Below the pieces are notes generated by a model. That model saw only the letters and a list, made by a program, of their open reading frames with translations, searched no databases and was not told the DNA's origin. A stretch of 64,000 bases of DNA. Origin: an uncultured Pseudomonadota bacterium (GTDB lineage: Bacteria > Pseudomonadota > Alphaproteobacteria > RF32 > CAG-239). Of this stretch, positions 29,852-46,834 are shown in pieces; position 1 is the stretch's first letter, and every line of letters starts with the position of its first letter. The DNA is taken from assembly GCA_949300375.1 (NCBI GenBank), contig CASGEB010000004.1:101-64100 (forward strand), given 5' to 3'. The position numbers and the translations under genes are program-made.

Positions 29852-30676
29852 TTATTTTTTATCAAGTTTGGCCGGGATGGAAAGAATTGCCCGGGCAATA
29901 TCGATTGTAAAATAATAGCCGATGAATGAGACATACCCAAACAGCGGAAGCAGCGCGCCGCAAACGGCATAAGCAACAATTCCGGCTTCCAGGTTAATCT
30001 CGCCGATATAATGATATTTAACAAACATCATCGCAATCAAATCATAAGAGGCAAAAATCATACAGCCGCAGAAGATGAGCGGAATGATTTTCAGGGAGCC
30101 TTTGGCGAAAAATGTCAGTAAGCCGATAAATTCTTCCCCGGCGGAAATGTTTTTTACAATTTCGATATTGAGCGTTTCCGGTTTCATTGCCATTGCCATC
30201 CAATATTCGCAAATAACAAAAATAGCAATGCCGGAAATAAGGAAGTGAAGGCTGCTGGCTTTTATTGAAATAATCAGGCCGCCGATTAGGGCGATAATGC
30301 CGAAGATGCCTGCTGCCAAAGCCAGAACTTCTAAAACAGCGGTTGAAGACAACTTTGCCGGCGTGTTATGAATCAACGTATTAAGGCAGGGGATGGTTTT
30401 GGCTGCAATATACTGAAAAACAATTGTTACAAACAAGCCGCCAATCCCGGCCGTCAAAACATAAAATGTACTCAGGGCATTGTATTTTAATACAAAAACA
30501 ATCGCAACCAGCAAAGACATCACGGCAATAAAATACATCAATGCCAAACCGGTTTTGGCAAACCACTTTTCATTTTGTTCCAAAAAATTATTATAAGTGG
30601 TTTTTTTCAGCCAGCTGAAAAAACGGTCAATCAGCGAGGCTGTATAAAGTCCGTCATTCTTTACGCTTTTGGTCAT
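29852..30676 (-). CDS. hypothetical polytopic membrane protein
   Basis: 274 aa with about 7 hydrophobic helices. Confidence 0.5.
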   Translation of the reverse strand: MTKSVKNDGLYTASLIDRFFSWLKKTTYNNFLEQNEKWFAKTGLALMYFIAVMSLLVAIVFVLKYNALSTFYVLTAGIGGLFVTIVFQYIAAKTIPCLNTLIHNTPAKLSSTAVLEVLALAAGIFGIIALIGGLIISIKASSLHFLISGIAIFVICEYWMAMAMKPETLNIEIVKNISAGEEFIGLLTFFAKGSLKIIPLIFCGCMIFASYDLIAMMFVKYHYIGEINLEAGIVAYAVCGALLPLFGYVSFIGYYFTIDIARAILSIPAKLDKK

Positions 30677-30804
30677 AATTATCCTCCGTAATAGTTAGCG
30701 CTATGCCGATAGCATAAAGATTTTATGCAAAAATTAAAAGCAAAAAAAAACATATTGGGCAAAAATATATAAGCCGTTTATTGTCAAATCAGAAACAAGT
30801 GCGG

Positions 30805-30841
30805 AAAACAAGAAAATCCCCATCCTCTGAGGAGGATGGGG
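30805..30841 (-). terminator. terminator after the 620-aa gene
   Basis: CCCCATCCTC-tgag-GAGGATGGGG 10-bp stem. A T-rich tract follows on the minus strand. Confidence 0.65.
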
Positions 30842-30849
30842 AGGAGAGA

Positions 30850-32712: not shown

Positions 32713-32740
32713 CTTCGTTCTCCTCTTCAATAATCAAAAA

Positions 32741-33020
32741 CCACCTTAAGAAGGTGGTCGGAGAGTTCGTAAATCATATTGAGTCAGATGATTCTCTAAG
32801 TTTTTAAAACAATGCCGCCAATTGCATGGCATTGTTTCTGAACATATACTTAGAGCTCCCCGACCATGGACGCGTCACATGATCAAGGGGATATACGCTG
32901 TCTTGGTTGCGCACTCAAGACAACTAAGCGGTGTATATCCAACACCGGACTCAATATGAGGACTTACGACAGTCCCGTACCTTCTTAGGTACTGAAGTAC
33001 AAATAACATTTGTACAACAC
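32741..33020. other. GC-enriched, hairpin-dense inverted-repeat region containing a tRNA-Thr-like fragment (candidate structured RNA or relic recombination site)
   Basis: Hairpins at 32741-57, 32807-37, 32858-90, 32900-21, 32977-92 and 32997-33015. Long-range complementarity of 32768-85 with 32948-68. The 11-mer GGACTTACGAC (32960-70) is identical to tRNA-Thr 46780-90. Confidence 0.4.
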
Positions 33021-33273
33021 TTATAGTAATATCATAATTTTTACAAATAGTAAATATATTTTTTGACGAAATAAGAAATAATTGTCTAACAAAGACTAAA
33101 AGCTCACCCCGGATTCAATAGGGGCGTATGGTGTTAAATGTCTGTAATAGCTTAATTTTTTTATAAAGTTTTATGGACAGAAAGTTTGGGCAAAATAAAG
33201 AATAAAAAACTTGCCTTTTTAAATAAATATGATATATCTTTACGCAAACGTCAAATTATTAAATAATACAATT

Positions 33274-33801
33274 ATGAAATCAGAAAAATTATTAAAAACC
33301 ATTCGTTCTGTTAGTGGAACAAAAGTTTTGCTTGAACCTTTTTCTTTTGCCAGATTGGAAGAATTTTACCGGCTTTACCAGAACTCCCGCCATAAATGGG
33401 AAAAATTTCTGACATTGCATTTTAATACAATCGGAAACGCCGGGACATGGATTTCCCAACAAACCCTGCTTGATTTTTTTATCGGATTTTTCATCATTGA
33501 AAAAAGCAGCGGCAAGATAGTTGGCTTTATTTCTGGTGACGAATTCGAGGATAAGGGTATCTCCAGAACAAGAGCCATCGGCATAGAATACGAAGGAAAA
33601 GGATATGCCTATGAGGCGTCAAAGCTGTTTGAACGTCTTGTTAAAGATGCCGGATATCCGGCAATCATATGCTTTTGTGATGAAGAAAACGAGCGTAATA
33701 AAAAATTGCTGTTAAGGGACGGTTTTGTCAAAATTTCCAAAGAAAAGCTTGAATGTTCGTCAGCGTCTGTGATATTGGGAATTTATACAAAAATGTTATA
33801 A
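33274..33801 (+). CDS. GNAT family N-acetyltransferase
   Basis: IGIEYEGKGYAYEASKLF (motif A) ...LLLRDGF. Start moved to an internal ATG. Confidence 0.65.
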   Translation: MKSEKLLKTIRSVSGTKVLLEPFSFARLEEFYRLYQNSRHKWEKFLTLHFNTIGNAGTWISQQTLLDFFIGFFIIEKSSGKIVGFISGDEFEDKGISRTRAIGIEYEGKGYAYEASKLFERLVKDAGYPAIICFCDEENERNKKLLLRDGFVKISKEKLECSSASVILGIYTKML

Positions 33802-33803
33802 TT

Positions 33804-33839
33804 AAAAAAAGCCGCAGAGAAAACTGCGGCTTTTTTTTT
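33804..33839 (+). terminator. terminator
   Basis: GCCGCAG-agaaaa-CTGCGGC followed by T9. Confidence 0.7.
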
Positions 33840-34001
33840 GTCTGTATGCGGTATGGTTATTTTGATAAAAAGCTAAATTTTTAAATAAAACATAGATGCA
33901 GAAGTTAAATTTGTCAAATTTTGTACTTGACTTGTTAGAAAAAATAAAATACAATAAGCACCGTAAAAGATATTATTGTTTAACTTTAAAATATAAAAAT
34001 T

Positions 34002-34496
34002 ATGGAAGCTATTATTTCAGATTTAATCGTTGGAGTCAAAATTTTGGGCATCGCAGCAATTTTGGCTATCTTTGTTTTAGGTATTTTTTTCTTCTTTTTC
34101 CGCCTGTTTGGGTACTCTTCGAGTGAATATTTTCACCATTATGGTATGAAAGACGAATGGGAAGAAAGACGGGAAATATTAAGTCATAGTTTGCGCAATG
34201 CCTGTGAAGCGGATAATGTCCGGCGGGCTGCGATACTTCTGATCCGGGGGGCAGATCCCAATAATACCAATGATTGGTACGGCCAAACGATACTGGAGAG
34301 TTCTCACAGCGAATCGATGAAAAAGCTTTTGCGGGCTTTTGGTGGCAAAACGCGGGCAGAACTTGAGGCTGCAAAAAAAGCGGCAAGAGCAAAAGCTGCA
34401 AAATTGTCTCCCGAAGAACGCGAAGAAAAAAGTATGAAATTTGTTAATAGGCTTTTGTCTGTTAAAAAAGTGTTCTTTTGGACAAAAAGTGCCTGA
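34002..34496 (+). CDS. membrane-anchored ankyrin-repeat-like protein
   Basis: N-terminal TM helix. NACEADNVRRAAILLIRGADPNNTNDWYGQTILE fits the ANK consensus (..LL..GADpN..d..G.T.L). Confidence 0.45.
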   Translation: MEAIISDLIVGVKILGIAAILAIFVLGIFFFFFRLFGYSSSEYFHHYGMKDEWEERREILSHSLRNACEADNVRRAAILLIRGADPNNTNDWYGQTILESSHSESMKKLLRAFGGKTRAELEAAKKAARAKAAKLSPEEREEKSMKFVNRLLSVKKVFFWTKSA

Positions 34497-34500
34497 TATA

Positions 34501-34537
34501 AAAGCGTTTCTCTGTTTAGAGAAACGCTTTTTTTTAT
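34501..34537 (+). terminator. terminator
   Basis: AAAGCGTTTCTC-tgtttag-GAGAAACGCTTT followed by TTTTTT. Confidence 0.7.
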
Positions 34538-34693
34538 AATATTATAATATTTATCATAAAGCGGCTAATAAGGCTCTATTGGCGGGCGTGGTTAAAATTG
34601 TATTTTTTTGTGCATTTTGGCTATTGTATTCTTCAAAAAAATATGATACATTAAAAAATGTAAACAATATTATTAACTTAAAACACAAAACTT

Positions 34694-35536
34694 ATGGAAA
34701 AGATTATTATTAGAGACCAGTTTGGTCATGGCATCGCAGCGGTAAATTTTGCAAAGGCTTTTGGTGTAACAGGTATCATTCTTCCGAAAAAAGACAATAA
34801 GGAAGATTTTGAAGCCGAGTCTTCCAAAATTTTTGATATCCTGTCATTCTTCTCTGGGAACCTGGAAACAGTTCCTTTTGAAGAACGCGAAAAAGCCGAA
34901 GCGGAAGGATGGGATGTCATCGCCGAGCTGAAGGCAGGAACCTTGCCGGATGAGGTTTGGGATAAATTTGCAACTTCGCAATTAATCCCGCAGTTTACCG
35001 AGGGATTGCCCGAATATAAAGGAATGCTGCCGGGAAGTGTCCTGTTTATACCGCAAAAGCTCATCAGCGATGGCGAATGTGGTGTTACGGCTGCGCAGCA
35101 GTCTGTAAATCCTCAGGTGTTCGCTTTCCTGAAGGAGGCTGGTGTGCCGTTGGTTTTAGGCCAGCACTTCCACAAAGTAAACGACTTGTCGGCCGTTCAA
35201 AATCTGGCAAAGGATTTCAACCTTTACGTTCCCGGAATGACTGAGAATAATGAAGTGTTTGGAATCCGCGGCGTTGCCCACGAGAAATATTACAATATGT
35301 ATAAATCTCTGAAGGCATCAGTCGGAATTGCCGGAACGCATACCTGGATTCTGCTGACAATGTTCCCGGACACGCCTCAAGTCATCCTTTATAATAAAAA
35401 GGGTGTGGAACGCTGGGAAGCGATTGAAGCAGCCTACCGGAAAAATGGCAAGAACATCATCACCATCGGTTTTGATGAAGAAACCAACATGGGTGAACTT
35501 GCCAAAAAAATAGAAGACGCTTATAAGTCTTTGTAA
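34694..35536 (+). CDS. hypothetical protein (280 aa)
   Basis: ORF with its own terminator. No confident motif; there is only a weak GT-B-like stretch, VGIAGTHTWILL. Confidence 0.5.
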   Translation: MEKIIIRDQFGHGIAAVNFAKAFGVTGIILPKKDNKEDFEAESSKIFDILSFFSGNLETVPFEEREKAEAEGWDVIAELKAGTLPDEVWDKFATSQLIPQFTEGLPEYKGMLPGSVLFIPQKLISDGECGVTAAQQSVNPQVFAFLKEAGVPLVLGQHFHKVNDLSAVQNLAKDFNLYVPGMTENNEVFGIRGVAHEKYYNMYKSLKASVGIAGTHTWILLTMFPDTPQVILYNKKGVERWEAIEAAYRKNGKNIITIGFDEETNMGELAKKIEDAYKSL

Positions 35537-35556
35537 AGATTTTTAAGTTGTCTTTA

Positions 35557-35592
35557 GAAGAGCCGTCATTTTTGGCGGCTCTTTCTTTTTTA
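35557..35592. terminator. bidirectional terminator
   Basis: AGAGCCG-tcatttttgg-CGGCTCT followed by a T-rich run. Confidence 0.6.
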
Positions 35593-36879
35593 TAAAGATA
35601 CCCGGTTCAGTACGGCTTCGGCAAAAACTTTCAACGGGTTCGACAAAACGGCCGGTCTGAGGTTTTGCGGCTCAAGTTCCATATAGCAGGCAAGTTTTAC
35701 AAATTCTTCAAAATCCAAAGCATATTTGGGCGTCATCAGCTGAAACATATTCAGGGTATCCGGCCGGATGCTTTTGTTTATATGAATACCGTTGGCGCTG
35801 ATTGCCGTCGGGATACCGGCGCTTAAGGTCTCGCAGCAGGAAAAACTGTCGACGGTATGAACGGCCAGAGTATTGTCAAAACCTAAAACAGCCGGATAAA
35901 TATTGCCGATTTGCCGGTGTGCGGAAAATTCGGATTCAAATTTCCCGGAGTATATACGCCATTTTGCCCTTTCTGCGTCCGTTTGGGCAATGTGCTTGCA
36001 ATTATGAAAAATGATATCTGGGTGCAGTTTGGCTTTTTCATACAGATAGTCTGTAACATCGTTAGGCGTGCGCGGCCCGTTGACAATTATAATGCCGTAT
36101 TGATGGCGCGCGAGAGAAACGCAGTGTTCAAACAAAGTTTGCGCGTAATTAACATCAAAAATAATCTCGCTCCCTTCGGTGCGTCCACCCAGACAGATAA
36201 CGGCTTTTTTCTTTTTCTTTAATATGTTTTGCAACTTACATATGTGAGCCGCGGCATTATCCGCCCTCGAAGAACGGGAAAGTATGTCCTCAAGTTCTTT
36301 TTTCTTTTTCGCCACATTTTCTTTGCTGAAAGAATGAATAATGCCGATGGTGATTAAGACTTTCTTGCGCAGTTTTTTATTTTGCAGCAGCCGGACGCGT
36401 ATGGGAAAACTCAGCATATGCTTGGGAACGTTAATAAAATCAATATACTTATAATTATGCAGTTTGCTGCTCAAAACAACGGTTAAAATATTTCCCAGTT
36501 GATGCAGTTTATAATATTCTTTTACAATACGGCATATTGTATCGGCATTAATGTTTGGAAAAGGGCTTTCAGTAAGATTATAGGGCGTCAGAAAAACGCG
36601 GGGAACCGGTTGCATATGTTCAAACCGGTCGTCTAATATGGAAAATATTTGTGCGCGGAACTTTTTATAGCTGTTGAAATTGGAATAACATAGGGATTTT
36701 GGCAAATCTTTGGCATCGTCAATGCCTTGCGGCAGCAGCAAACATTTGTCGGCGGGACAATCTGAACCGGCTTTTTGATGAATGGCGTTAATTGCCCCGA
36801 TTAATTGGTTGCGATACCCGGTATAGGAAGTGTCAAATGCAAAAGCGATGATATCGGACTTTGCCCTTTGGGTCATCAT
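35590..36879 (-). CDS. ELM1/DUF1022-like putative glycosyltransferase-fold protein
   Basis: N-terminal FDTSYTGYRNQLIGAINA, central VICLGGRTEGS...IIVNGPRTP and C-terminal VHTVDSFSCCETLSAGIP resemble the ELM1 family pattern as I remember it. Confidence 0.35.
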   Translation of the reverse strand: MMTQRAKSDIIAFAFDTSYTGYRNQLIGAINAIHQKAGSDCPADKCLLLPQGIDDAKDLPKSLCYSNFNSYKKFRAQIFSILDDRFEHMQPVPRVFLTPYNLTESPFPNINADTICRIVKEYYKLHQLGNILTVVLSSKLHNYKYIDFINVPKHMLSFPIRVRLLQNKKLRKKVLITIGIIHSFSKENVAKKKKELEDILSRSSRADNAAAHICKLQNILKKKKKAVICLGGRTEGSEIIFDVNYAQTLFEHCVSLARHQYGIIIVNGPRTPNDVTDYLYEKAKLHPDIIFHNCKHIAQTDAERAKWRIYSGKFESEFSAHRQIGNIYPAVLGFDNTLAVHTVDSFSCCETLSAGIPTAISANGIHINKSIRPDTLNMFQLMTPKYALDFEEFVKLACYMELEPQNLRPAVLSNPLKVFAEAVLNRVSL

Positions 36880-37560
36880 CTAATATTCCTTTCGATCTGC
36901 GTTATTAAGAAAAAATGAGGCGCACCAATAGAGTTTGCTTAAAAGATTATCTGTGTTGATTTGATGTTTTTCTTTAAAATCCTGCATTTTTAAGACAATA
37001 GATATGTCAATGTTAATGTCCGCCTTTAAGAGCGACAGCATCTTGATAAAACTGGACAGGATAACGGTATTATGAAGGCTGGCGGCATGAAACCGGTATT
37101 TCTTCCCCGGATTTGGCAAATGCAAAGAAATGGTGTTGTTAAGATAATCGGTCTGAATATCCAGTCCCAGATAACCTAAAGTCCGGATGTCTTTATACAT
37201 GGTGTCGCTATTCATCTGCAGCAGGCGCAAAACATAAATCGCGGCGGTGCCGAAGAAAAAATAAGGACGATAAGAAATCGAGGCTTGTTTAAAATCATGA
37301 ACTTTAAAAACGGCTTGCAGCGGATAACAGCTATCATCACATCCTTCAACTCCCATAAGGGCGGCAAATAATAGAAAATATTTATTTTCTTTTTCCGGTT
37401 TAATCAGAATAACTTTATTTTTGCTGTTGGCCTTAATTAGTTTTCTGACATCCTGCAGAATGCTTTTAAAATCTATTTTATCCGGTGTTTTAAGGGAATA
37501 AATAGGATAACTTTCTCCGCAAAAAATATTGCCTTCATTTTCATCAAAAATTATTTCCAT
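36880..37560 (-). CDS. hypothetical protein (226 aa), abuts the ELM1-like gene
   Basis: Its stop codon is directly adjacent to the downstream start. No motif. Confidence 0.5.
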   Translation of the reverse strand: MEIIFDENEGNIFCGESYPIYSLKTPDKIDFKSILQDVRKLIKANSKNKVILIKPEKENKYFLLFAALMGVEGCDDSCYPLQAVFKVHDFKQASISYRPYFFFGTAAIYVLRLLQMNSDTMYKDIRTLGYLGLDIQTDYLNNTISLHLPNPGKKYRFHAASLHNTVILSSFIKMLSLLKADINIDISIVLKMQDFKEKHQINTDNLLSKLYWCASFFLNNADRKEY

Positions 37561-37797
37561 ATTTAATCCTTTTGTTTATAGGGTGTTTGAATACTAAATT
37601 TTATTAATAAAGGCATAATAGTCCTCTCCTTGTTAATAAAACATTAATCCTGCGGCAGAATTTGAAAAATTGTAAAACCGGATGCCGAAACCGGCAAATA
37701 GATTTATCGGGTTTTTAGCAATTTTTCTTGACAAAATTGCCTCTTTGTTTATTGTTGCGTTTAACAAATTATATTATTAATCTAAATTTTATCTATT

Positions 37798-38637
37798 ATG
37801 AAAAATCTGTTATTTTTATTGTTTGCCGTGCTCATCTTGAGTTCTTGCCATGAAATAAAAGGCAATTTTTATTTGGAAAACAGCGGAAAGATAGAAAGAA
37901 TTGAAAACGCGGAAAATGTTGTCATTAATGGAAACAGCTATCTGATTGATGGCGGCGTTGAAGATTGGCTTTCCGGCGAAAAATTAAACGTTGGAGATTC
38001 TGTCGGCGTTTATGTTAGCAAAGAAAAGGTTTGCCTTTCAAAAAATGATTGTGTTCAGGCCGTGCCGTTAATCAAAAGATTATCTTTTTCTTTTCGGGGG
38101 ATAAATCATACTTATAAGGAAGTTCTGGTTTGGTCTCTTATGGCAGGCATGGTTCTGTCTCTTATCTTGAGTTATTTGTTTGAAAAAACAAAAGATGACG
38201 GTATAGAGTGGTGGATGACCGTATGTACGGTACGATGTATGGCTCTCGCTCTGTTTGGGGCGTCGGTTTTTGGTCTTTTTGCCCCTTCGGTTGAATACGA
38301 TGGATATAAGAAAGTTGATAAAGTTACCGCGCAACTCATTACCATTTCCGGACAGAATTATCTTCAGGGAAAAATCAGTGCTTCGGGAACAAGTGTTAAA
38401 GCCGGAAAGAGCTATTACATTTATAGCTTTGGCGATAAATATTATTTTATTGATTCGGATTCCGGTTTTCGCAATGCTTCACAGCCTGAAGCATTTGCAG
38501 AAATTGTAAATAAAAGAATTGACAAAACCGCCTGGATTTATACCGGTATATTTGGCTTTGTCCTTTTGCTCTTGTATCTTCGCGGTATTGATATAACCTC
38601 GGATTTTGATAAGATTGGAGCATATGTCCCAACATAA
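37798..38637 (+). CDS. hypothetical lipoprotein with central TM helices
   Basis: Lipobox LSSC, about 3 internal TM helices and 1 C-terminal TM helix. Confidence 0.5.
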   Translation: MKNLLFLLFAVLILSSCHEIKGNFYLENSGKIERIENAENVVINGNSYLIDGGVEDWLSGEKLNVGDSVGVYVSKEKVCLSKNDCVQAVPLIKRLSFSFRGINHTYKEVLVWSLMAGMVLSLILSYLFEKTKDDGIEWWMTVCTVRCMALALFGASVFGLFAPSVEYDGYKKVDKVTAQLITISGQNYLQGKISASGTSVKAGKSYYIYSFGDKYYFIDSDSGFRNASQPEAFAEIVNKRIDKTAWIYTGIFGFVLLLLYLRGIDITSDFDKIGAYVPT

Positions 38638-38676
38638 GCGAGGAATATTTTGATCCGCATGGCTGGTAAAAAGTTT

Positions 38677-38710
38677 AGGGATTGGAAAGCAATTTTCCAA
38701 TCCCTTTTTG
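38677..38710 (+). terminator. terminator
   Basis: AGGGATTGGAAA-gcaa-TTTTCCAATCCCT followed by TTTT. Confidence 0.7.
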
Positions 38711-38841
38711 TATCCGGAAAACCACGGGCTTATGAAGCAATGTCCCAAACGGGTAGGTAGCGAAAATGAGCATTAAGCTTGGTGAACAGATTATAAGCAT
38801 ATGCATTCGTAAAACATTTTTGTCATATAAACAGCTCAATC

Positions 38842-39450
38842 TTACAATAGTTTATGAATGTCATATTCGTCATAGCCTTCATAATAATAACTGACATTAA
38901 TGCCTTTCATAAAGATTTCCCGTTCATCAATTTTATCTGTTAGGGCATTTTTTAAGAGATGTTTTATTTCAATATCTTTAACAGGGCTTCTTTCCATTGC
39001 TGATAAATAGTCTTCTTTATCGATTTTATTCCAATCAACAACTTGTTTAATTTCTTTTTTTAATATTAAATCCAGCCAAATCCTTGTTGCGCGGCCGTTT
39101 CCTTCTTGGAAAGGGTGGGCAATATTCATTTCAACATATTTTTCAACAATTTCATCAAAGGTTGACTGAGGCATTTTATCTATATGTTTTAGGGCTTGTG
39201 CCAAATACATCACCGGAGCAAATCTGAAGTTTCCTTTTGATATGTTGACGTCGCGCATTTTTCCTGCAAAATCATAAATATCTTCAAACAAATACTTATG
39301 AATCTGTTTTAATCCGGCAAACGTCCCGGCCTTTATCTGATTGATTTTACCACTGTCAAAAAGCTTTTTGGCCTTTTCTTTGCTAAGCTTTTCTTCAATC
39401 TTATTCAATTCAATTTGATTGGTAATATTCAATTTATTTTCTAAAACCAT
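38842..39450 (-). CDS. fic: Fic family protein (AMPylase-type), class III with C-terminal inhibitory motif
   Basis: Canonical [12 protein letters not shown] (HxFx[D/E]GNGRxxR). C-terminal SYYYEG fits the inhibitory (S/T)xxxE(G/N) motif. Confidence 0.85.
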
Positions 39451-39494
39451 TATAAATCATCTTTCATAAAAATGCATGATGCTTTTATAATAAT

Positions 39495-39617
39495 ATAAAA
39501 TTGCTAAAATTTACATAATAAAATCAAATTGCCGGCGCTCCCGATTGTTGTTGTCCTAAGATAAAGCAATTATCGAACCGAGGATTATGAGGATTTTAAA
39601 GACTTGGGTGGGAAAAT
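39495..39617. repeat. cassette-boundary module, copy A (degenerate)
   Basis: Shares TTGCTAAAATTT with copy B, and GCAATTATCGAACCGAGGATTATGAGGATTTTAAAGACTTGGGTGGGAAAAT with the right ends of B, D and E. Confidence 0.6.
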
Positions 39618-39796
39618 GGAGATGTTTGAGGATAGTGTCAATAAAGACTTTGCTATTGAAAGTGGTATGATGTCAGATCTGAAGCCTGTTTTACCGTAAC
39701 TTATGATCTGATGGATGCAGATAACAGCTCGTTTGTTTCTTTGGCCAACGATACGGCATATAATGTCAAAGGCGAAACTCTCGACTATTTCGGCAC

Positions 39797-40228
39797 TCAG
39801 TAAAAACCACAGTCACTACAGGAACTAACAGGACAGACGCAAAGGCAAGGGGATATAATCTCAGAAATGTGTGAAGATAAGAACAAAAGAAATAACATAA
39901 AAATAATTACGCAAATACGTTTGGCAATAATATACTCTCTTTTGTCTGTTCTTTTTTTGGAAAATTTTAAAACCAATAAAACAAGTAAAGAAACGGAAAA
40001 CAAGCCCAAAAGTAATACATACCAAAACTCATAACTGGAAAAACATATTATATAATATGAGAGATACTTTTGCGAAAGAGCAAAAATCAAAAAGGTTACG
40101 CAAATACGTTTGACAATAATATACACTTTCCCGCCCATTCTTTTTTTTGAAAAGTTTAAAACTGGCAATGCAGCAAAAGAAACTAAAAGAAATCCTAAAT
40201 AAAATCCTGAAAATAAAATATCAGTCAT
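39797..40228 (-). CDS. hypothetical membrane protein with internal tandem duplication
   Basis: LNFSKKRMGGKVYIIVKRICV... is repeated as LKFSKKRTDKREYIIAKRICV.... The DNA repeat TTACGCAAATACGTTTG.CAATAATATAC is seen at about 39910 and 40096. Confidence 0.45.
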   Translation of the reverse strand: MTDILFSGFYLGFLLVSFAALPVLNFSKKRMGGKVYIIVKRICVTFLIFALSQKYLSYYIICFSSYEFWYVLLLGLFSVSLLVLLVLKFSKKRTDKREYIIAKRICVIIFMLFLLFLSSHISEIISPCLCVCPVSSCSDCGFY

Positions 40229-40340
40229 CCTACACTCACTTCCGCCATATAAAATAATACAAATATACTGCCCCTATCTATTGAAAAGTCAAGTTAAAAT
40301 ATCAATATTTAACACCTTTGAGCTGCTCAAATTTTTTCAG

Positions 40341-40385
40341 TCAATTTTATCGGACAGGGATTAGAACAATAAAAAGCTTGGTTTT
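40341..40385. repeat. solo right-end fragment of the module (copy B')
   Basis: TCAATTTTATCGGACAGGG...AAGCTTGG matches GCAATTATCGGACAGC...AAGCTTTTG of copy E. Confidence 0.45.
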
Positions 40386-40399
40386 TTAGCGTTCGCTCT

Positions 40400-40580
40400 A
40401 AAAGTCCGATAAGTTGCTAAAATTTGTTCTTTTAAAAATTCTCAAAATCGGACTAGCTGAAAGGTTTGGAATACATACAAAAAAAGCACCTCAAAAGGTG
40501 CGTTCTTAAAAATGGTGCGCGATACTGTGCAATTATCGGACTAATGAATATGACGATTTTAAAGGCTTGGGTAGGAAAAT
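40400..40580. repeat. cassette-boundary module, copy B
   Basis: AAAAGTCCGATAA (40400-), AAAATCGGACT (40447-54), hairpin GCACCTcaaaAGGTGC (40486-501), AAAAATGGTGCGC...GCAATTATCGGACT (40535-42), ...GTAGGAAAAT. Confidence 0.85.
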
Positions 40581-40769
40581 GGAGTTGTTTGATTGTGGCA
40601 TTAACAAATCAAATTTACTACTGGCATAATATTTTCAGACAGCCGCATCTTATTTTATAAAACTGAACAGTTGTATAAATTTTTAAAATAAACATTGACA
40701 ACAAAAACTTTTAACAGTATATTTTATAAAATCTGACATATGTACAATTATTTAAAATAGGAGGGTGTT

Positions 40770-42023
40770 GTGAAAATTGAAAGAACAAATTACCTTACTC
40801 AACTAATCAACAAAAAACACAACGGATTAGTTAAAATAGTTAGTGGAATAAGACGCTGTGGTAAATCCTATTTATTGTTTCAACTTTTCAAGCAACATTT
40901 GCTGGATGAAGGGGTTTCTGAAAAAAGAATCGTTACTTTGGCTTTAGACGACTATCCAAATATAAAATATCGTCAGCCAGATGAATGTTATAACTATGTC
41001 AAATCACATATCATTGATTCTGAAATGCATTATTTGTTATTAGATGAAGTTCAGCTAATGGATAATTTTTCAGATGTTTTAAATGGCTTTTTACACATTG
41101 AAAATTTAGATGTATATGTAACCGGAAGCAATTCTAAATTTTTATCTACCGACATTGTAACGGAATTTAGAGGCAGAGGAGATGAAATCAGGGTTTATCC
41201 TCTCAGTTTTGCAGAATTCTTTTCTGTTTATGAAGGATCTTGGACTGATGCATGGAAAGAATATTATACTTATGGTGGTATGCCTATGATTTTATCTCGT
41301 CAAACAGATGAGGAAAAGCGGAAGTATTTACAGTCTTTATTTACTGAAACATATATTCAAGATATCAAAGACCGGCATAATATCCGTAATGATGAAGAAC
41401 TAGAAGAATTAATAAATATTTTAGCTTCAGATATTGGTTGCTTAGTAAATCCGTTAATATTAACCAATACTTTTAAGAGCGTAAAAAAACTAGATATTTC
41501 AGCACCAACAGTTAAAAACTATATTGATTATTTGCAAGATTCTTTTTTAATTAGTAATGCGTTGCGTTATGACATTAAAGGTAAAAAGTATATAAACACT
41601 CCATCTAAATACTATTTTACTGATTTAGGATTACGAAATTCGCGTTTACGATTTAGGCAAACAGAAGAAAGCCATATCATGGAAAATATAATCTATAATG
41701 AATTGAAAATTCGTGGCTGTGATGTTGACGTTGGAGAGGTTCTTATTAAAGAAAAACAAGCCAATAATACATACATTAACAAAAAAACAGAAGTTGATTT
41801 TGTAGTAAACTGCGGTTACAAAAAATATTATATTCAATCAGCCTTACAAATGCCAACAAAAGCAAAAGAAACTCAAGAAAAACGCTCGTTATTAAAAATA
41901 GGTGATTCATTTAAAAAAATAATTATTGTAAAAGATGATGTGGCGACCTATCAAGATGATGACGGTATTTTAATTTTAGGGTTAAAAGAATTTTTGTTAA
42001 ATCCTAATTGCTTGGATATATAA
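40770..42023 (+). CDS. AAA-type ATPase of the COG1373 / DUF4143 family
   Basis: GTG start after AGGAGG. Walker A GIRRCGKS, Walker B LLLDEVQ. The C-terminal part has the DUF4143-like pattern. Confidence 0.7.
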   Translation: MKIERTNYLTQLINKKHNGLVKIVSGIRRCGKSYLLFQLFKQHLLDEGVSEKRIVTLALDDYPNIKYRQPDECYNYVKSHIIDSEMHYLLLDEVQLMDNFSDVLNGFLHIENLDVYVTGSNSKFLSTDIVTEFRGRGDEIRVYPLSFAEFFSVYEGSWTDAWKEYYTYGGMPMILSRQTDEEKRKYLQSLFTETYIQDIKDRHNIRNDEELEELINILASDIGCLVNPLILTNTFKSVKKLDISAPTVKNYIDYLQDSFLISNALRYDIKGKKYINTPSKYYFTDLGLRNSRLRFRQTEESHIMENIIYNELKIRGCDVDVGEVLIKEKQANNTYINKKTEVDFVVNCGYKKYYIQSALQMPTKAKETQEKRSLLKIGDSFKKIIIVKDDVATYQDDDGILILGLKEFLLNPNCLDI

Positions 42024-42126
42024 TTTCTTAGTAAGTTTGAAGAGATATTAATCTGTATTATGGAAGATATTAAATTGCCACAATAAAATACAGCTGACTT
42101 TCAAGCCAACTGTATTTTCATCAAAT

Positions 42127-42489
42127 TTAGAATAAGATTTTCTTTTTAAGACAGTATTGCAACCATCTGTACACTCTCCAAGGATGTGCAACAGCTTCAT
42201 GACAAATGTAAAATGAGAACCAAAAAATTGCATACTCTGCTTGAACCTCTGGTGGAAGATCTGTATTTTCGACAGTTTGAACAAAATCATAATTAGATTG
42301 TCTGTCATAATAGTCCTGACGTTTCGTATTATTCAGATCTTCAACTCCAAACAAAGCTATGTTCTTCTTTACACTGTTTAGGTTGCGTGCTTCTTCTATG
42401 AAATCATAAATCTGCTCTCTCGTTAAAATAACGGGGCAGCTCCTTTTGATAGCGTCTATGACATACGCTCTATTAATAACACTTTCCAT
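42127..42489 (-). CDS. hypothetical protein (120 aa)
   Basis: ORF only. Confidence 0.4.
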   Translation of the reverse strand: MESVINRAYVIDAIKRSCPVILTREQIYDFIEEARNLNSVKKNIALFGVEDLNNTKRQDYYDRQSNYDFVQTVENTDLPPEVQAEYAIFWFSFYICHEAVAHPWRVYRWLQYCLKKKILF

Positions 42490-42564
42490 AATTATAAGAT
42501 TTTATAAATAATAATTCTATTTGTGGACAGATTATATATAAAAACTTTAAAAGTAAAGAGATAA

Positions 42565-42750
42565 AAAAGTCCGATAATTCTTTCAAAACTATCATTATAA
42601 AAAACTCAAAAATCGGACTTTGTAAGCATTTGTTTAAAAATAAAAAATCCACCACTCGGGCGGAATTCTTAAAAATGGTGCGCTTTTGCTGTGCAGTTAT
42701 CGGACTAATTAATATGAGGATTTACAAGTATTTTCGAGAAAATTAAAGAT
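42565..42750. repeat. cassette-boundary module, copy C
   Basis: It has the same three GTCCGAT/ATCGGAC motifs (42569-75, 42612-19, 42699-706). Its internal hairpin TCCACCACTCGGGCGGA is of the type found next to the real tRNA. Confidence 0.85.
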
Positions 42751-42770
42751 TTTAAGGGAAATATGCAAAC

Positions 42771-43802
42771 TTAACTATTTTGCTTCTCATTTTGATACAT
42801 TCTTAAAGTGCTTAAATCAACTTTAGACATATTATAAGTTGGTTTATATGGTGGTTTTGTATCGTGGGCTTTTAGCCTATTACGCAAGTTTTCAATTCTT
42901 TTTGATATTTCATCCCTTGTGTTGTAAAGTTTTTGTTCTTTTACTGAGATACGATAATCGCCCCAAGTCATTTCATTAGCGCTCTCTGGTGCTGTTCTCT
43001 TGTTTGTGTCCGGATCATATACTATTTCCCCCCTGAGCTTGGACACGTTCATATCTCTAATAGGTTCTTGTGAACAATATTTAATGGGAATATCCGAGGT
43101 ATGCAACAAAGTTCCATTTATATTTATATTATCTTGGTTTGATGCAACAGCTTGTACTAATTTATCATAATTATTTTTGTATGAGGGGGACTTAGAACAT
43201 AGATAATCATTTATAGCTTGAGTTCTATAAGAGTTATTTGCATTTGTGCTGTCTACTTTTTCTATAATTTTTTGCCCAGATGAATTGGTATACTCAATTA
43301 TTGGGCACTTAGTTTCATTATCCCATCCAAGTTTATTAACAATGTTTTTTTCACCTAAAGAGTTTTCTGTCTCGAAATTTACATTAGCATTAAACTCATT
43401 CTTTTGAGCTTCCCAAAAATCTAAAAATATTGATCTGTTTCTTCCTCTCTTTATATTGGGATGTTGTTCATTATCTAACTGCCAAGCTGGATATTTTATA
43501 GTATCCTTTTTTACAGGAATTTCTATTTTAAGGGCCTCATTATTTTTAAGTCTAATATCAATACCAAAGTTTTTCATAGCCCACTCTGCATCAGCCGCAA
43601 CAAGTAAAGAGCAATAATACTTGTTAGCCTTGCCTTCACTAGTCCAACAATAAAAACCCTTACTTTGTCCACCATACCCATTACCTTGCTCAGGAACAAT
43701 TCCTTTTGCTAAGAACTGATTAGTTTTTTCCTCTGAAGCATCTCTTGATATATGATAAAATTTTAAATACTCATCATCCATTATACGACCTTTGCATCCC
43801 AT
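42771..43802 (-). CDS. PARP-like (H-Y-E class) ADP-ribosyltransferase domain protein with unknown C-terminal region
   Basis: N-terminus LKFYHISRD...FLAKGIVPEQ...GYGGQSKGFYCWTSEGKANKYYC aligns by eye with PARP1 LLWHGSR...ILSQGLRIAP...[21 protein letters not shown]. The H-to-Y spacing is an identical 34 residues. A later KNEF is a candidate for the catalytic Glu. The start may be the second ATG (43781). Confidence 0.5.
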   Translation of the reverse strand: MGCKGRIMDDEYLKFYHISRDASEEKTNQFLAKGIVPEQGNGYGGQSKGFYCWTSEGKANKYYCSLLVAADAEWAMKNFGIDIRLKNNEALKIEIPVKKDTIKYPAWQLDNEQHPNIKRGRNRSIFLDFWEAQKNEFNANVNFETENSLGEKNIVNKLGWDNETKCPIIEYTNSSGQKIIEKVDSTNANNSYRTQAINDYLCSKSPSYKNNYDKLVQAVASNQDNININGTLLHTSDIPIKYCSQEPIRDMNVSKLRGEIVYDPDTNKRTAPESANEMTWGDYRISVKEQKLYNTRDEISKRIENLRNRLKAHDTKPPYKPTYNMSKVDLSTLRMYQNEKQNS

Positions 43803-43864
43803 ATATTATAGTAATTTATAACATTCTTGTAATATTACAAAAATATAATTTATTCGTGCAAAAA

Positions 43865-44662
43865 TTACCGACAATTTTCCTTTAATTTTTTATTTCGTAA
43901 CATTGCCTCTTTAGCATCTTCCGTTTGGCTTTTTGCAATTTTCCTATTCTTTTCAGTTATTTCGCCTGTCCTGCTATTCCCTGTTTTGCCTAAATCGTCT
44001 TTAGATAAACCAATTTCTTCAAAGCCCGAAGATAGTGATTTGGTTTTAAGTTCTAACGGATCAATATTACTGTTTTTTATTCTTTTTCTGAGTTCTGCAA
44101 TTTTTTGTAAGCTCTTATCAGCATATTCAATTAAACCTGTTTCAGGATTAAAGTCTAGTTCGGGCTTTTTATTATCATCGCTTCTCTTTTGATTTGATTT
44201 TTGTTGCTCAAGATCATCGAAATTAAAGTTCGCAAAAGCATTAAAATCAGGTACACTTTCTTTAAATAAGAAATTGTCTTTTTTTCCGCCTTTAAATAAT
44301 TTTTCCAAATTTTCAAGTGTCGGTTCAAAATATTTTATTCCGGGTTGTCCTGGATTATCGCTGTTAAAGCCACAATGTTCATAAAAAGAGCCAGCACCCC
44401 ATGTGGCATGAACGACTATGCGTCCTTCACATCCCATTTGTTGTGATAACTCATAGCATTTTTGCAACCCGGCGCGTCCGTAACCATTTCTTTGGAAGGT
44501 TCCAAAGCCATCAATTTCTAAGACAGATTTATCTTTCCAAGTATCTGGACACAGAAAACCATTATATTGAGGATGGATTGAAATATTACAAATTCCAACC
44601 TTTGTCTCTCCCTCAAACATGTCATATGCAAACATATTGCTAATATTAAGAGTATCTACCAT
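43865..44662 (-). CDS. GNAT-fold acetyltransferase-like protein with Lys/Glu-rich C-terminal tail
   Basis: FQRNGYGRAGLQKCYELS (motif A) ...FYEHCGF. Confidence 0.55.
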   Translation of the reverse strand: MVDTLNISNMFAYDMFEGETKVGICNISIHPQYNGFLCPDTWKDKSVLEIDGFGTFQRNGYGRAGLQKCYELSQQMGCEGRIVVHATWGAGSFYEHCGFNSDNPGQPGIKYFEPTLENLEKLFKGGKKDNFLFKESVPDFNAFANFNFDDLEQQKSNQKRSDDNKKPELDFNPETGLIEYADKSLQKIAELRKRIKNSNIDPLELKTKSLSSGFEEIGLSKDDLGKTGNSRTGEITEKNRKIAKSQTEDAKEAMLRNKKLKENCR

Positions 44663-44756
44663 TTATGAACCCTCCAATATATTTTATCATTTTTTTAGCT
44701 AAAATGAAACAATTTATTAAAATTAGTAAAATGCTTGGTTTTGTTGATTTTTTATT

Positions 44757-44940
44757 AAAAAGTCCGATAGGTTAGCTTAAAAGTGCTTTTATAAAAATCC
44801 TTAAAATCGGACTAGCTGAAAGGTTTGGAATACATACAAAAAAGCACCTCAAAAGGTGCGTTCTTAAAAATGGTGCGCTTTTGCTGTGCAATTATCGGAC
44901 TGAGGATTATGAGGATTTTAAGGATTGGAGTAGGAAAATT
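44757..44940. repeat. cassette-boundary module, copy D
   Basis: Motifs at 44762-68, 44806-13 and 44894-901. Hairpin at 44844-59. TGGTGCGCTTTTGCTGTGCAATTATCGGACT is identical to copy E. Confidence 0.9.
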
Positions 44941-44942
44941 AA

Positions 44943-45707
44943 CTATAATATTTGCCGTCTAATGTCTTTTTCATTTATTTGACAATATAAGTAAGATTCC
45001 TCCATAAATTGTATTATATTTTTAGACTTTATATAGAGAGAGGTTAACTCTTCAAGAATAATTTGATTATTTATTTTCATATCATAAAAATATTTATAAG
45101 CTGGTTTATTTTTATACTTTTCAGGATACATATTTCCAATATCTGTATTTTTCACAAAGGTATCTATGACCATTTCGCTTAAAATCCATTTTAAATTTGG
45201 TGCTTCATATTCAGACCAATCATCTTTAAAATGTTGTTTCCATATATAAAACCAAACAAAATGAATCATTTCATGAAGAGATGTTTTTAGAAAGTCAAGT
45301 TCATCCCCTGCCCAAGTAACAGAATAGCTTTGATGCCTGAGATTTCTGGGACATACGGGATTAAGAGAAACTTCTGCAATCATAGTATTAAAAAGATTGT
45401 CGCAATCAATACCATACACTTTTGTGTAAATATGATTTATTTTTTCTTTGTTTTCATTCCAAATTTTTTGGAAAATAAAACACTTTTTTTGTAAGTTTAT
45501 TTCAATTTTATCATAGATTTTTGATAATTCTGCCGTTAAATATTCTTTTCTTTCATTCCAAGCCATATTTAAACATTTTTTTTCGTCCAAAAAAGGATAA
45601 GCTTTGAATAAAGCTCCTCGCCAGTAAGCAGAAGTATCATCAGTTTGAAAATTCAAAATACTTGATAATGTGTCAATTTTATCCATTATTTTGACTGATA
45701 AGTCCAT
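44943..45707 (-). CDS. hypothetical HExxH-motif protein (putative zinc metallopeptidase)
   Basis: SLHEMIHFVW, with SEMVID 27 residues downstream as a possible third ligand. Confidence 0.45.
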   Translation of the reverse strand: MDLSVKIMDKIDTLSSILNFQTDDTSAYWRGALFKAYPFLDEKKCLNMAWNERKEYLTAELSKIYDKIEINLQKKCFIFQKIWNENKEKINHIYTKVYGIDCDNLFNTMIAEVSLNPVCPRNLRHQSYSVTWAGDELDFLKTSLHEMIHFVWFYIWKQHFKDDWSEYEAPNLKWILSEMVIDTFVKNTDIGNMYPEKYKNKPAYKYFYDMKINNQIILEELTSLYIKSKNIIQFMEESYLYCQINEKDIRRQIL

Positions 45708-45771
45708 TTATATATCTCCTTATTTCAAGTTGTGTGAGGATTGTATAGAATGCAATATGTAAAGTAAAGAT

Positions 45772-45953
45772 AAAAGTCCGATAATTCTTTCAAAATCATC
45801 AAATTAAAATTCTCAAAATCGGACTGAATGAAAGGCTTGGTTTATATAGCAAAAAAGCACCTCAAAAGGTGCTGCCTTAAAAATGGTGCGCTTTTGCTGT
45901 GCAATTATCGGACAGCTTTTTATGATGATTTTAAGCTTTTGAGTAGGAAAATT
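45772..45953. repeat. cassette-boundary module, copy E
   Basis: Motifs at 45776-82, 45818-25 and 45907-13. Hairpin at 45857-72. Confidence 0.9.
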
Positions 45954-45959
45954 TGAACT

Positions 45960-46571
45960 TTATATAAATCCATTTGCCGTTAAATAATCATAAATCTCAT
46001 CAGACATAATCTGATGCCCTTTAGCATTAGGATGAGTAGCATCTTTGTACAACTCTTTTAATTTGCGATTTTTCCATAAATTATATCGAGAGAAGAAAGC
46101 TATGTTGCGACTATCACAAATTTCTTTAATTATCTCATTATATCTTTCAACATCTGAATTATAACGAATGAGAGAAGCTTGTTCCGTATATCTTTCCTCA
46201 ACAACCGGAATTAGGTCTAAAACAACAATATTTGCTTTTGTTAAGGCTAAAATATCAAGGAGTTTATTCCAATACATTTTTCTAGCACCTTCAGAAAAAT
46301 CTAATTGCAAATCACTATCTTTGCGTCGTCTTAAGTCATTGATGCCGATATTTACCAGAATTAAGTCAAAATTTCTTGATAGCGTTTCACTAAATGCACG
46401 ATTAGTTGCATCGGCAACATTATCTCCGGATTGTGACATATTATTAAAAACATATTCACCTACGTGATGTGATAGTATCTTTTGAGCAAGTCTTGCAAAA
46501 TATCCTAAATTTTGTTCATCATAATATCCGTGAGCAATACTATCTCCAATCATGCCAATGTTTTTAACCAT
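45960..46571 (-). CDS. SGNH/GDSL family hydrolase
   Basis: Block I IGDSIAHG, block III GINDL, block V DATHPNAKGH. Confidence 0.8.
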   Translation of the reverse strand: MVKNIGMIGDSIAHGYYDEQNLGYFARLAQKILSHHVGEYVFNNMSQSGDNVADATNRAFSETLSRNFDLILVNIGINDLRRRKDSDLQLDFSEGARKMYWNKLLDILALTKANIVVLDLIPVVEERYTEQASLIRYNSDVERYNEIIKEICDSRNIAFFSRYNLWKNRKLKELYKDATHPNAKGHQIMSDEIYDYLTANGFI

Positions 46572-46647
46572 TTTCTTCTCCTTAACTTCATTTGTAATAA
46601 GTAAATACCTATAATTTTAAAAGGTCAAATATATTATTAATTTTACC

Positions 46648-46759
46648 AAAAAGTCCGATAAGTTGTTGAAAATTGCCTATTTTAAAATCTAAAAAATCGG
46701 ACTAAATAAATACTTGTTTAAAAACAAAAAATCCGCCACTTGGGCGGAAATATCAAAAA
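46648..46759. repeat. native downstream flank of tRNA-Thr, apparent template of the module (copy F)
   Basis: AAAAGTCCGATAAG (46653-59), AAAATCGGACT (46696-703) and terminator hairpin TCCGCCACTTGGGCGGA (46731-47). The third motif is the tRNA T-loop itself. Confidence 0.85.
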
Positions 46760-46834
46760 TGGTGCCGCTAGTAAGAATCGGACTTACGACCCCACCCTTA
46801 CCAAGGGTGTGCTCTACCACTGAGCTATAGCGGC
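46760..46834 (-). tRNA. tRNA-Thr (anticodon GGT) with atypical T-loop TCCGATT
   Basis: 75-nt cloverleaf folded by hand. Acceptor GCCGCTA/TAGCGGC, anticodon loop TTGGTAA, T-arm GTAAG-TCCGATT-CTTAC, encoded CCA. Confidence 0.85.

Follow-up and report, generated by a model that had tools for sequence, protein, structure and literature searches.

A tRNA-Thr-anchored array of small gene cassettes, probably stacked at the attachment site of a large serine recombinase family of gut Alphaproteobacteria

Introduction

The 64,000-nucleotide stretch analysed here (contig CASGEB010000004.1, positions 101 to 64,100; hereafter the window, whose numbering all coordinates follow unless a locus is named) comes from an uncultured alphaproteobacterium and carries, downstream of a tRNA-Thr(GGT) gene, an array of one- or two-gene units separated by repeated modules of about 200 bp, five of them well conserved and one degenerate. 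The tRNA gene itself (46760-46834, minus strand; identified by ARAGORN and by Rfam at 70 bits) is read here as the left (B) arm of an attachment site. [quoted passage not shown] The comparisons with about 100 related loci set out below lead to a different view, in which the array most probably consists of integrase-less cassettes, stacked in tandem at an attachment site that belongs to a large serine recombinase (LSR) family of gut Alphaproteobacteria, and the puzzling "tRNA-mimic" repeat finds its explanation as a relic of the integrase gene.

Layout of the array

A profile built from the modules matches the window at 46647-46784 (the tRNA end and its flank), 45769-45970, 44755-44955, 42560-42758 and 40395-40599, in agreement with the copies F, E, D, C and B and with the punctuated arrangement of one- or two-gene units first described. 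The degenerate copy A also exists, recognisable only at 39566-39631, where just the left half is matched, and not over the 39495-39617 originally assigned to it. At E ≤ 1e-3 the same profile finds no copy outside the array in the whole 64 kb.

The array is further marked by a short word, AGTCCGAT, which the T-loop of the window tRNA-Thr(GGT) spells 11 nt upstream of GCACCA. The word is over-represented: it occurs 16 times in the window against 1.1 expected, a count of at least 16 being reached in 0 of 100 shuffles, and 14 of the 16 occurrences lie inside the array. Its supposed presence three times in every module does not hold for copy E, where site 1 reads TGTCCGAT and the exact 8-mers are two, not three. 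A longer string, the 36-mer AGTCCGATAATTGCACAGCAAAAGCGCACCATTTTT, is found three times at no more than one mismatch, with 0 expected.

Each GC hairpin of the modules, together with its T-run, scores as a minus-strand intrinsic terminator, as had been proposed, and these hairpins make up five of the six terminator matches in 38.8-46.9 kb. The promoters that the cargo genes had been thought to possess find no such support, promoter-like sites in a consensus scan being not enriched (44 found, 40.5 expected). The G+C content is 30-37% at ~30-47 kb and 42-48% outside. Recombinase and transposase domains are absent from the 40 window open reading frames (ORFs) scanned, and a tblastn search with the integrase described below returned short relics only and no LSR, which bears out the earlier observation that the window encodes no recombinase.

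The module as a relic of a large serine recombinase gene

The related loci were gathered by searching a module-derived pattern in GTDB representative genomes and in metagenome contigs. The representative genomes gave a single match (L001, an "uncultured Alphaproteobacteria" metagenome-assembled genome), too sparse to compare, and the metagenome contigs gave 73 loci, mostly from the human gut; in a viral collection neither the module pattern nor the LSR was matched, which lends no support to a phage origin. Mapping of modules, tRNAs and ORFs across these loci revealed a recurrent opposite-strand ORF that overlaps the modules and the tRNA ends. Because its full-length form in L035 (551 aa) combines the Pfam domains Resolvase, Recombinase and Zn_ribbon_recom, the recurrent ORF is, by domain content, an LSR. 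A comparison with Protein Data Bank sequences gave no match at E ≤ 1e-3, and its domain boundaries therefore come from Pfam alone. In related loci an intact LSR gene of 514-551 aa lies antisense, immediately after tRNA-Thr.

The attP regions of intact genes are colinear with the modules at the nucleotide level, the inverted repeat and the extension B′ included. Judged by this colinearity, the module is a relic of the antisense 3′ ~210-300 nt of the integrase gene, or its last ~70-100 codons, and not a copy of the tRNA. What had been described as a tail with a pseudo-tRNA end is the P arm, equivalent to LSR codons 514 to stop. The terminator and the inverted repeat derive from codons ~466-513; they make up the P′ side, whose first ~40 nt have, in cassettes, been turned into an intrinsic terminator. 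The inverted repeat of intact genes, AGTCCGAT...ATCGGACT, lies ~85-130 nt from the recombination core and encodes ...KSPI...LSDC.... The codons AAATGGTGC (Lys-Trp-Cys) are the reverse complement of GCACCATTT, and the codons that follow them read AILC(D/N/S)YRT(E/N).Y(E/D)(E/D)FK.... In the window, the plus-strand translation of module B is KWCAILCNYRTNEYDDFKGLGRKMELFD, to be set against KWCAILCSYRTENYDEFKELTRKMELFED in the native integrase tail; modules C, D and E carry the integrase-tail relic with a 1-nt frameshift, and tblastn detects integrase residues 511-535 on every module. Across the loci, relics of ~20, 60, 117, 129, 153, 203 and 374 aa occur, up to full length.

A wider collection of 400 LSR homologues, whose ORF crosses the core and whose clusters hold up to 426 member sequences, indicates how far this arrangement extends. 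Since homologues at 40-50% identity still end in ...W(C/L) followed by antisense tRNA sequence, the LSR family appears to be broad. In the literature searched, no earlier characterisation of this family was found, so that it can be newly defined as a widespread LSR family of uncultured gut Alphaproteobacteria with integration at a tRNA CCA end and attP inside its own ORF.

The relics also leave their mark on databases. Gene calls P0045, P0049, P0052, P0059, P0060 and P0063 fuse integrase relics with Fic, NERD, DNA methylase and restriction-enzyme domains; these fusions of relic and cargo are probably annotation artefacts that arise from the open antisense frame of the modules.

The recombination core

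The cassette boundaries had been placed at AGTCCGAT. The boundaries observed lie instead at GCACCATT, an 8-bp sequence made up of the tRNA acceptor end, with discriminator and CCA, plus 2 nt, and the junction sequences indicate that this, and not the T-loop word, is the point of exchange. In the integrase frame the core reads ...K-W-C, and attP lies within the last ~40 codons of the LSR itself. Four kinds of junction have GCACCATT in common: the tRNA abutting the integrase body, or attL (L026, L048, L049, L061, L071, L078, L079 and L081); the native tail joined to the body in an intact gene, of attP type (L035, L009, L080 and L099); an integrase tail followed by another unit or a native-looking terminator, of attR type (e.g., L068); and the tRNA abutting a cassette. 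The window offers the last of these at core 0 (46758-46765, minus strand), where GCACCATT, composed of tRNA bases 71-76 and 2 nt, forms the junction of the tRNA and unit 1; its plus-strand frame reads KWCR and a stop, the same ending as in the 514-aa integrated forms of the integrase.

The length classes of the integrase fit these junctions. Proteins of 543-548 aa have the native tail, those of 526 aa continue from KWC into RWQESDLRPRHYQ and a stop, which is antisense tRNA, and those of 514 aa continue from KWC into R and a stop, the ending encoded by the window tRNA allele TAGCGGCACCA. Integration thereby exchanges only the last 22-38 residues, the native tail after KWC being replaced by R or by RWQESDLRPRHYQ. 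The right arm of cassettes also follows tRNA-Leu(TAA) (L044 3413-3615) and tRNA-Thr(CGT) (L051 3858-4049), both of which end in GCACCA. As the T-loops of these two tRNAs differ, the common element is GCACCA-TT, that is, the acceptor/CCA end, and not AGTCCGAT; the LSR and cassette family uses several tRNA genes.

Two loci, L064 and L072, were considered as empty attB sites and rejected, the tRNA in both being followed by a core-bounded unit of 203 nt. Such gene-less core-bounded units of 203-207 nt occur in L064 (186-389), L015 (2034-2237), L036 (10159-10366), L069 (678-885) and, after the tRNA, L072. They begin with a native-looking terminator, are predicted to fold into a strong structure (minimum free energy -73 kcal/mol for 211 nt) and finish with 19 nt that truly duplicate the 3′ end of tRNA-Thr, ATTCTTACTAGCGGCACCA; such a unit may be a small RNA gene or a scar left by some other integrative element. 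An Rfam scan of the window at gathering thresholds, and an E-value scan of three loci, returned tRNAs only, so that neither the module nor the 203-nt unit has an Rfam match.

Cassettes as discrete and polymorphic units

Core-to-core lengths are constant for a given cargo: 1491-1493 nt for the c8-c6 unit, 1467 nt for c21-c22 (three loci), 920 nt for c52 (three loci) and 876-877 nt for the SGNH unit. The c8-c6 unit stands directly beside the tRNA in L070 and L003, and in L052, L056 and L068 it adjoins the integrase tails of three different cassettes; in every one of these comparisons identity starts right after G|CACCATT and stops right after the next CACCATT. In a systematic pairwise walk across differing contexts, the first mismatch fell, counted from CACCATT, at -2 to its left and between +7 and +12 to its right. 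Ungapped walking yields spurious internal "breakpoints" at indels, and of the internal ones only those confirmed by eye were interpreted. The SGNH hydrolase of the window, the first unit here, is 100% identical in protein sequence in L003, where it stands second and beside a different tRNA allele, and an SGNH unit of 876-877 nt occupies the second array position in both L003 and L004.

Close relatives of the window were found through near-identical variants of an isochorismatase gene 1.7 kb from the tRNA. They amount to 16 contigs whose arrays are framed as in the window, by isochorismatase-DEAD-META-tRNA at one end and by Fic...spermidine-synthase-like at the other. The identity of these flanks to the window is 95% or 90%, and members of one sub-lineage agree with one another at 99.4-99.5%. 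All 16 contigs have a tRNA-anchored array that ends at the Fic unit, and the content of the array differs, from tRNA-A, tRNA-K-A and tRNA-D-A to tRNA-C, tRNA-M-C and tRNA-N-C-G. L052 (tRNA-c203-c8c6) likewise has its extra unit at the tRNA when compared with L070 (tRNA-c8c6). In five independent cases altogether the extra unit adjoins the tRNA, which fits insertion at the tRNA-borne core. Single cassettes are thus present or absent in related strains with exact boundaries, and the suggestion that very small cargo units insert serially and site-specifically at tRNA-Thr is upheld in this respect. Copy F, by contrast, had been taken for the flank of the tRNA itself; it is the left arm of the first cassette and differs between strains that share the same tRNA allele.

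Throughout the related loci, module copies form arrays of uniform orientation that lie beside a tRNA wherever the flank is visible. Integrase-less cassettes stand in tandem with an integrase-bearing element in L035, L080 and L006/L039, the order in L035 and L080 being tRNA, cassette, intact integrase. Integrase-bearing elements longer than 7-11 kb occupy the same site in L026 and L081.

The terminator and inverted repeat of a module, together termed "part 2", have a mosaic structure, as seen in the comparison of window 46640-46757 with L003 1586-1760 and L070 338-460. In the SGNH unit of the window, the terminator segment is that of the c8-c6 unit and passes at site 2 into an inverted repeat of the SGNH type. 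Unit A carries two different part-2 variants in strains with 99.4% identical flanks (L085 and L088).

Recognition sequences in the two arms

GCACCA is preceded by AGTCCGAT at a distance of 11 nt in the tRNA and of 16-17 nt in the P arm. The attP and attB sites of serine integrases share a zinc-ribbon-domain motif of 7-8 bp, which is 5 bp nearer the centre in attB (PMC3783163); the offset between the two left arms matches this 5-bp rule. By analogy, AGTCCGAT is probably a protein-recognition word, namely the zinc-ribbon-domain motif of the LSR. Within the integrase gene the word is encoded in three ways, as KSPI in sense orientation and as LSD and YRT in two different frames, and the occurrence of one DNA word in three coding contexts implies a constraint at the DNA level.

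Two further copies of AGTCCGAT, sites 2 and 3, lie ~60 and ~105 nt from the core. Among 51 non-redundant right arms, the core, the T-run and these two sites are near-invariant, with the loop and terminator segments decayed; both sites fall outside the search pattern with which the right arms were collected. They may serve as additional binding sites or act as an operator or promoter. Nearer the core, integrase-type P′ arms hold only a weak ATCGAAC/ATCAAAC at ~26-28 nt, and cassette arms have nothing conserved there.

The residue at position 55 of tRNAs is almost universally U (pseudouridine 55). The T-loop of the window tRNA-Thr(GGT) is UCCGAUU, with C55, and those of the window tRNA-Met and tRNA-Val are canonical (TTCAAAT and TTCGATC, respectively). 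C55 is kept in all tRNA-Thr(GGT) alleles of the related loci, and it is this base that makes the T-loop read AGTCCGAT.

Proposed mechanism and its rivals

We propose that LSR-bearing elements of uncultured gut Alphaproteobacteria integrate at GCACCATT, the tRNA-Thr end, and in doing so would swap the C-terminal tail of their integrase. The cassettes (0.9-2.9 kb) would be deletion derivatives that lack the integrase and retain both sides of an extended attP, able to enter and leave as units at GCACCATT through the LSR of another element. That enzyme could act in trans, or a neighbour that still carries its integrase could provide it in cis through accretion, an arrangement present in L035 and L080. 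If the tRNA-side half-site and the core are enough for re-use, each insertion would leave a target behind and push older units distally, where their cores would decay, as copy A appears to have done. The hairpins of the modules would stop transcripts that run on from the tRNA or from the preceding cassette; a first ~40 nt of the right arm remodelled into a terminator is what would be expected if a newcomer must end the tRNA transcript and insulate its cargo. As the window encodes no recombinase, its own array would be either mobilisable only with outside help or now fixed.

Several observations weigh against this proposal. The 64-kb window encodes no LSR, and an LSR would have to act on these cassettes from elsewhere. 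Canonical LSRs recombine only attP with attB. Here the target, composed of the tRNA arm, the core and the previous P′-like arm, would be attL-like and the internal modules attP-like, and with such targets an LSR would need an unusual tolerance of the right arm. On that arm, the symmetric inverted AGTCCGAT was not found at the expected second half-site to the right of the core, and within 30 nt of the core cassettes have no conserved sequence except the hairpin and T-run. Neither a truly empty attB among the related loci nor an excised circle was observed. In L003 the SGNH unit is internal by comparison with L070, and some process besides growth at the tRNA end must therefore be at work. One and the same cargo may, moreover, be accompanied by part-2 variants of different kinds, whose breakpoints fall within the inverted repeat or next to it and not at the core. 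This exchange of part 2 looks, from the breakpoints, like homologous exchange or gene conversion between modules, which would also shape the arrays.

It is conceivable, if on balance doubtful, that the parallel with integrons goes further and that LSR stacking needs no more than the tRNA half-site and GCACCATT. The attP would then span ~250 bp and hold the word AGTCCGAT three times, once in the P arm and twice as accessory copies that lie 60-105 bp away in the integrase ORF; cassettes would be captured and released in trans, and the tail swap would act as a switch of directionality or activity.

Another history, which we consider improbable, would have full-size integrated elements decay in situ, losing the integrase by deletion, with the small units never having been mobile. 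In keeping with it are the integrase relics of every length, the degradation of older modules such as copy A and the occupation of this site in L026 and L081 by elements of more than 7-11 kb that carry an integrase. Yet small units recur with the same ends, and with lengths constant within 2 nt, at different positions and beside different tRNA alleles, as do c8-c6 (in at least six contexts), c21-c22, c52, c53 and the SGNH unit; independent deletions would not repeatedly rebuild the same junction of core and terminator arm, and units with identical ends have in part been seen in unrelated genomes. Exchange by homologous recombination, with modules and tRNA as homology anchors for RecA-dependent events after DNA uptake and no site-specific enzyme acting today, is a further rival. 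Cassettes would then pass between strains in the manner of the "minimal mobile elements" of Neisseria. The modules here are 70-90% alike over ~200 bp, the part-2 variants are mosaic with respect to cargo and have imprecise breakpoints around the inverted repeat, and the window is without a recombinase. We nevertheless hold this explanation of the array to be highly improbable, because a junction of tRNA with cassette and a junction of another unit's P arm with the same cassette share only GCACCATT on the left, yet the breakpoint always falls at -2/+7, and because intact LSR genes whose ORF crosses this very point abound in the same populations.

The explanations first put forward, an integron-like platform that acts through tRNA-derived hairpins at AGTCCGAT with an unknown integrase, or a tRNA-derived MITE, are largely refuted and can be given hardly any credence. 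In their favour are the strong over-representation of AGTCCGAT, the resemblance of sites 1 and 3 to terminal inverted repeats, the conservation of sites 2 and 3 and a few internal breakpoints at or beside these two sites. The module is homologous to the end of an LSR gene and not to the tRNA, however, the boundaries lie at GCACCATT, and the module also follows tRNAs with other T-loops. There is neither an IntI nor an attC-type GTTRRRY core, terminators stand between the cassettes, and the enzyme that accompanies them belongs to the serine recombinases. A generic repetitive extragenic palindrome or MITE fares no better, all window copies lying inside the array and those of the related contigs in arrays of one orientation.

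Relation to known systems

Tandem accretion at the attachment site of an LSR is itself known, contrary to the first impression of a layout without parallel. SCC-like cassettes that lack ccr genes lie in tandem at rlmH in staphylococci and are excised by the Ccr LSR of a neighbour (PMC11470126). The staphylococcal cassette chromosome elements (SCC/SCCmec; 3′ end of rlmH, CcrAB/CcrC) and the arrays described here are both tandem cassettes at a single chromosomal LSR site, many without a recombinase, bounded by repeated att sites and enriched in defence-type cargo. They differ in that the target here is a tRNA 3′ end and there a protein gene, that units here measure 0.9-2.9 kb with one or two genes and there tens of kilobases, and that each unit here keeps a 210-300-bp relic of the integrase gene, attP being located inside the integrase ORF. 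Excision by the LSR of a neighbouring cassette is established there; here, a comparable mobilisation is suggested by the sequences.

A second parallel is provided by the ssrA islands of Dehalococcoides. Several of them follow a small-RNA gene in tandem, with repeats of the 3′ end of that gene as their boundaries and with a reverse-strand ~540-aa LSR and a ~200-aa serine recombinase (DsiB/DsiA) beside attL; 15 islands without an integration module have been interpreted as cis-mobilisable elements (CIMEs) (PMC3146451). The tandem layout, the reverse-strand LSR and a second recombinase of ~200 aa all have counterparts here, the last as a 198-aa small serine recombinase (Resolvase and HTH_7) beside the LSR in L081 (8980-9576) and L082 (935-1531), which parallels CcrA/CcrB and DsiA/DsiB; next to the LSR of L035, L080 and L099 this protein is either missing or out of view. 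Insertion in Dehalococcoides is in the T-loop of the transfer-messenger RNA with a 20-bp direct repeat, and here at the acceptor/CCA end with an 8-bp core; the islands are large, whereas the units here are miniaturised and have a built-in terminator. The CIMEs of ICESt1 and ICESt3 in Streptococcus thermophilus (Pavlovic et al. 2004, cited in PMC3146451) are reported to be likewise integrase-less, to keep their att sites, to lie in tandem with an integrase-bearing element and to be mobilisable together with it. They rely on tyrosine integrases with identical att cores and arm sites. The arrays here go with a serine recombinase, an enzyme that would not be expected to accept attL- or attP-like targets.

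Integrons, and the clusters of attC sites lacking integron-integrases (CALINs), resemble the arrays as ordered series of one-gene cassettes with a repeated structured element and apparent entry at one end. The arrays here differ from them in having no IntI tyrosine recombinase, attI, attC or GTTRRRY core, in a repeat that is a relic of a recombinase gene, and in cassettes that are insulated by terminators and lie on either strand; no IntI with adjacent attI and Pc was found in the window or in the flanks of the ~100 related loci. Archaeal integrases of the SSV type and phages with integration-dependent immunity have attP in a coding sequence, alter a protein upon integration and include a tRNA target, with tyrosine recombinases as the enzymes. 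The integrase gene of SSV is split upon integration; here the exchange is confined to the last 22-38 residues.

A full-text literature search returned no description of an LSR with this arrangement. What appears to be new, judging from the sequences compared, is the 8-bp core at a tRNA CCA end, attP within the ORF, the miniaturised relic-bearing units with terminators and the apparent re-use of attL-like sites. The arrays suggest that a serine-recombinase site can be used repeatedly to stack one-gene cassettes, as integrons do in other bacteria. LSR sites are commonly pictured as simple, 40-50 bp long and strictly selective for attP x attB; a relaxed right arm and accessory AGTCCGAT sites would, if true, extend this picture and could serve iterative genome engineering.

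Units and cargo of the window

Each of units 1-4 is enclosed by two GCACCATT cores and is devoid of a recombinase; the units and their cores are on the minus strand. Unit 1 (45882-46757; 876 nt; core 45882-45889) has a P′-like arm with its terminator at 46732-46748 and the inverted repeat of AGTCCGAT at 46696-46703 (minus) and 46652-46659 (plus), an SGNH/GDSL hydrolase gene at 45960-46571 and an integrase-tail relic at ~45890-45970. In unit 2 (44869-45881; 1013 nt; core 44869-44876) the terminator is at 45856-45873, the inverted repeat at 45818-45825 and 45775-45782, and the integrase-tail relic is frameshifted; its cargo is an ORF of 254 aa (44943-45707) without a family match. Unit 3 (42674-44868; 2195 nt; core 42674-42681), with its terminator at 44844-44859, inverted repeat at 44806-44813 and 44761-44768 and an integrase-tail relic, carries a GNAT-like gene of 265 aa (43865-44662) and an ORF of 343 aa (42771-43802). 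The GNAT-like gene is also the sole gene of the 1199-nt unit A of the close relatives.

Unit 4 (40511-42673; 2163 nt; core 40511-40518) has its terminator at 42648-42664 and its inverted repeat at 42612-42619 and 42568-42575. A 120-aa ORF (42127-42489) is accompanied by an opposite-strand AAA_14/DUF4143 ATPase (40770-42023), which PADLOC places in the candidate defence family PDC-S01. The relic of unit 4 (40510-40599, plus strand) is the best-preserved integrase tail of the window and is the one that reads KWCAILCNYRTNEYDDFKGLGRKMELFD. The oldest recognisable unit, unit 5 (39566-40510, minus strand), ends in the degenerate integrase-tail relic of copy A (39566-39631), which is without an intact core. 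Its terminator lies at 40486-40501 and its inverted repeat at 40447-40454 and 40403-40410, and a fourth motif, TGTCCGAT, at 40349-40356 corresponds to the extension B′ of the earlier description. The cargo of unit 5 is a membrane ORF of 143 aa (39797-40228, minus strand) with an internal tandem duplication, 39886-40010 and 40075-40199 being 73% identical over 125 nt.

Beyond unit 5 lies the Fic segment (38841-39552, minus strand), NmFic-like and assigned to PDC-S04 by PADLOC. Fic is the conserved distal end of the array in 16 of 16 close relatives and is inverted in the window: over 37798-39552, the Fic segment is reversed relative to the tRNA when compared with these 16 contigs, an additional EamA-like gene is present at 37798-38637, and a degenerate module found after Fic in the relatives is missing here. 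PADLOC and NCBIfam searches of the cargo placed only the ATPase and Fic, leaving four ORFs without a match. Of the first assignments, those of the SGNH hydrolase (SGNH/GDSL), the GNAT-like protein, the ATPase (AAA_14 with DUF4143) and Fic stand, and those of an HExxH protein and a PARP-like ART have no support from Pfam, NCBIfam or PADLOC. Some cassettes are candidate defence or toxin genes, such as Fic and the PDC-S01 ATPase.

The low G+C content persists past the recognisable array into 30000-38800, where no modules are found even at E ≤ 50. This segment holds an ORF of 626 aa, a GNAT gene, an ELM1-like glycosyltransferase-like gene and others, varies among the relatives, some of which have an ankyrin-repeat protein here, and may be older cargo with fully decayed sites. 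In most loci (L014, L052, L070 and others) murA lies downstream of the array, and in some (L042, L071 and L080) it lies immediately upstream of the tRNA and is inverted. The window has no murA nearby, and its c38-c58-c30 block (25.1-27.6 kb) is inverted relative to L058; the tRNA and its array appear to be a breakpoint of chromosomal rearrangements.

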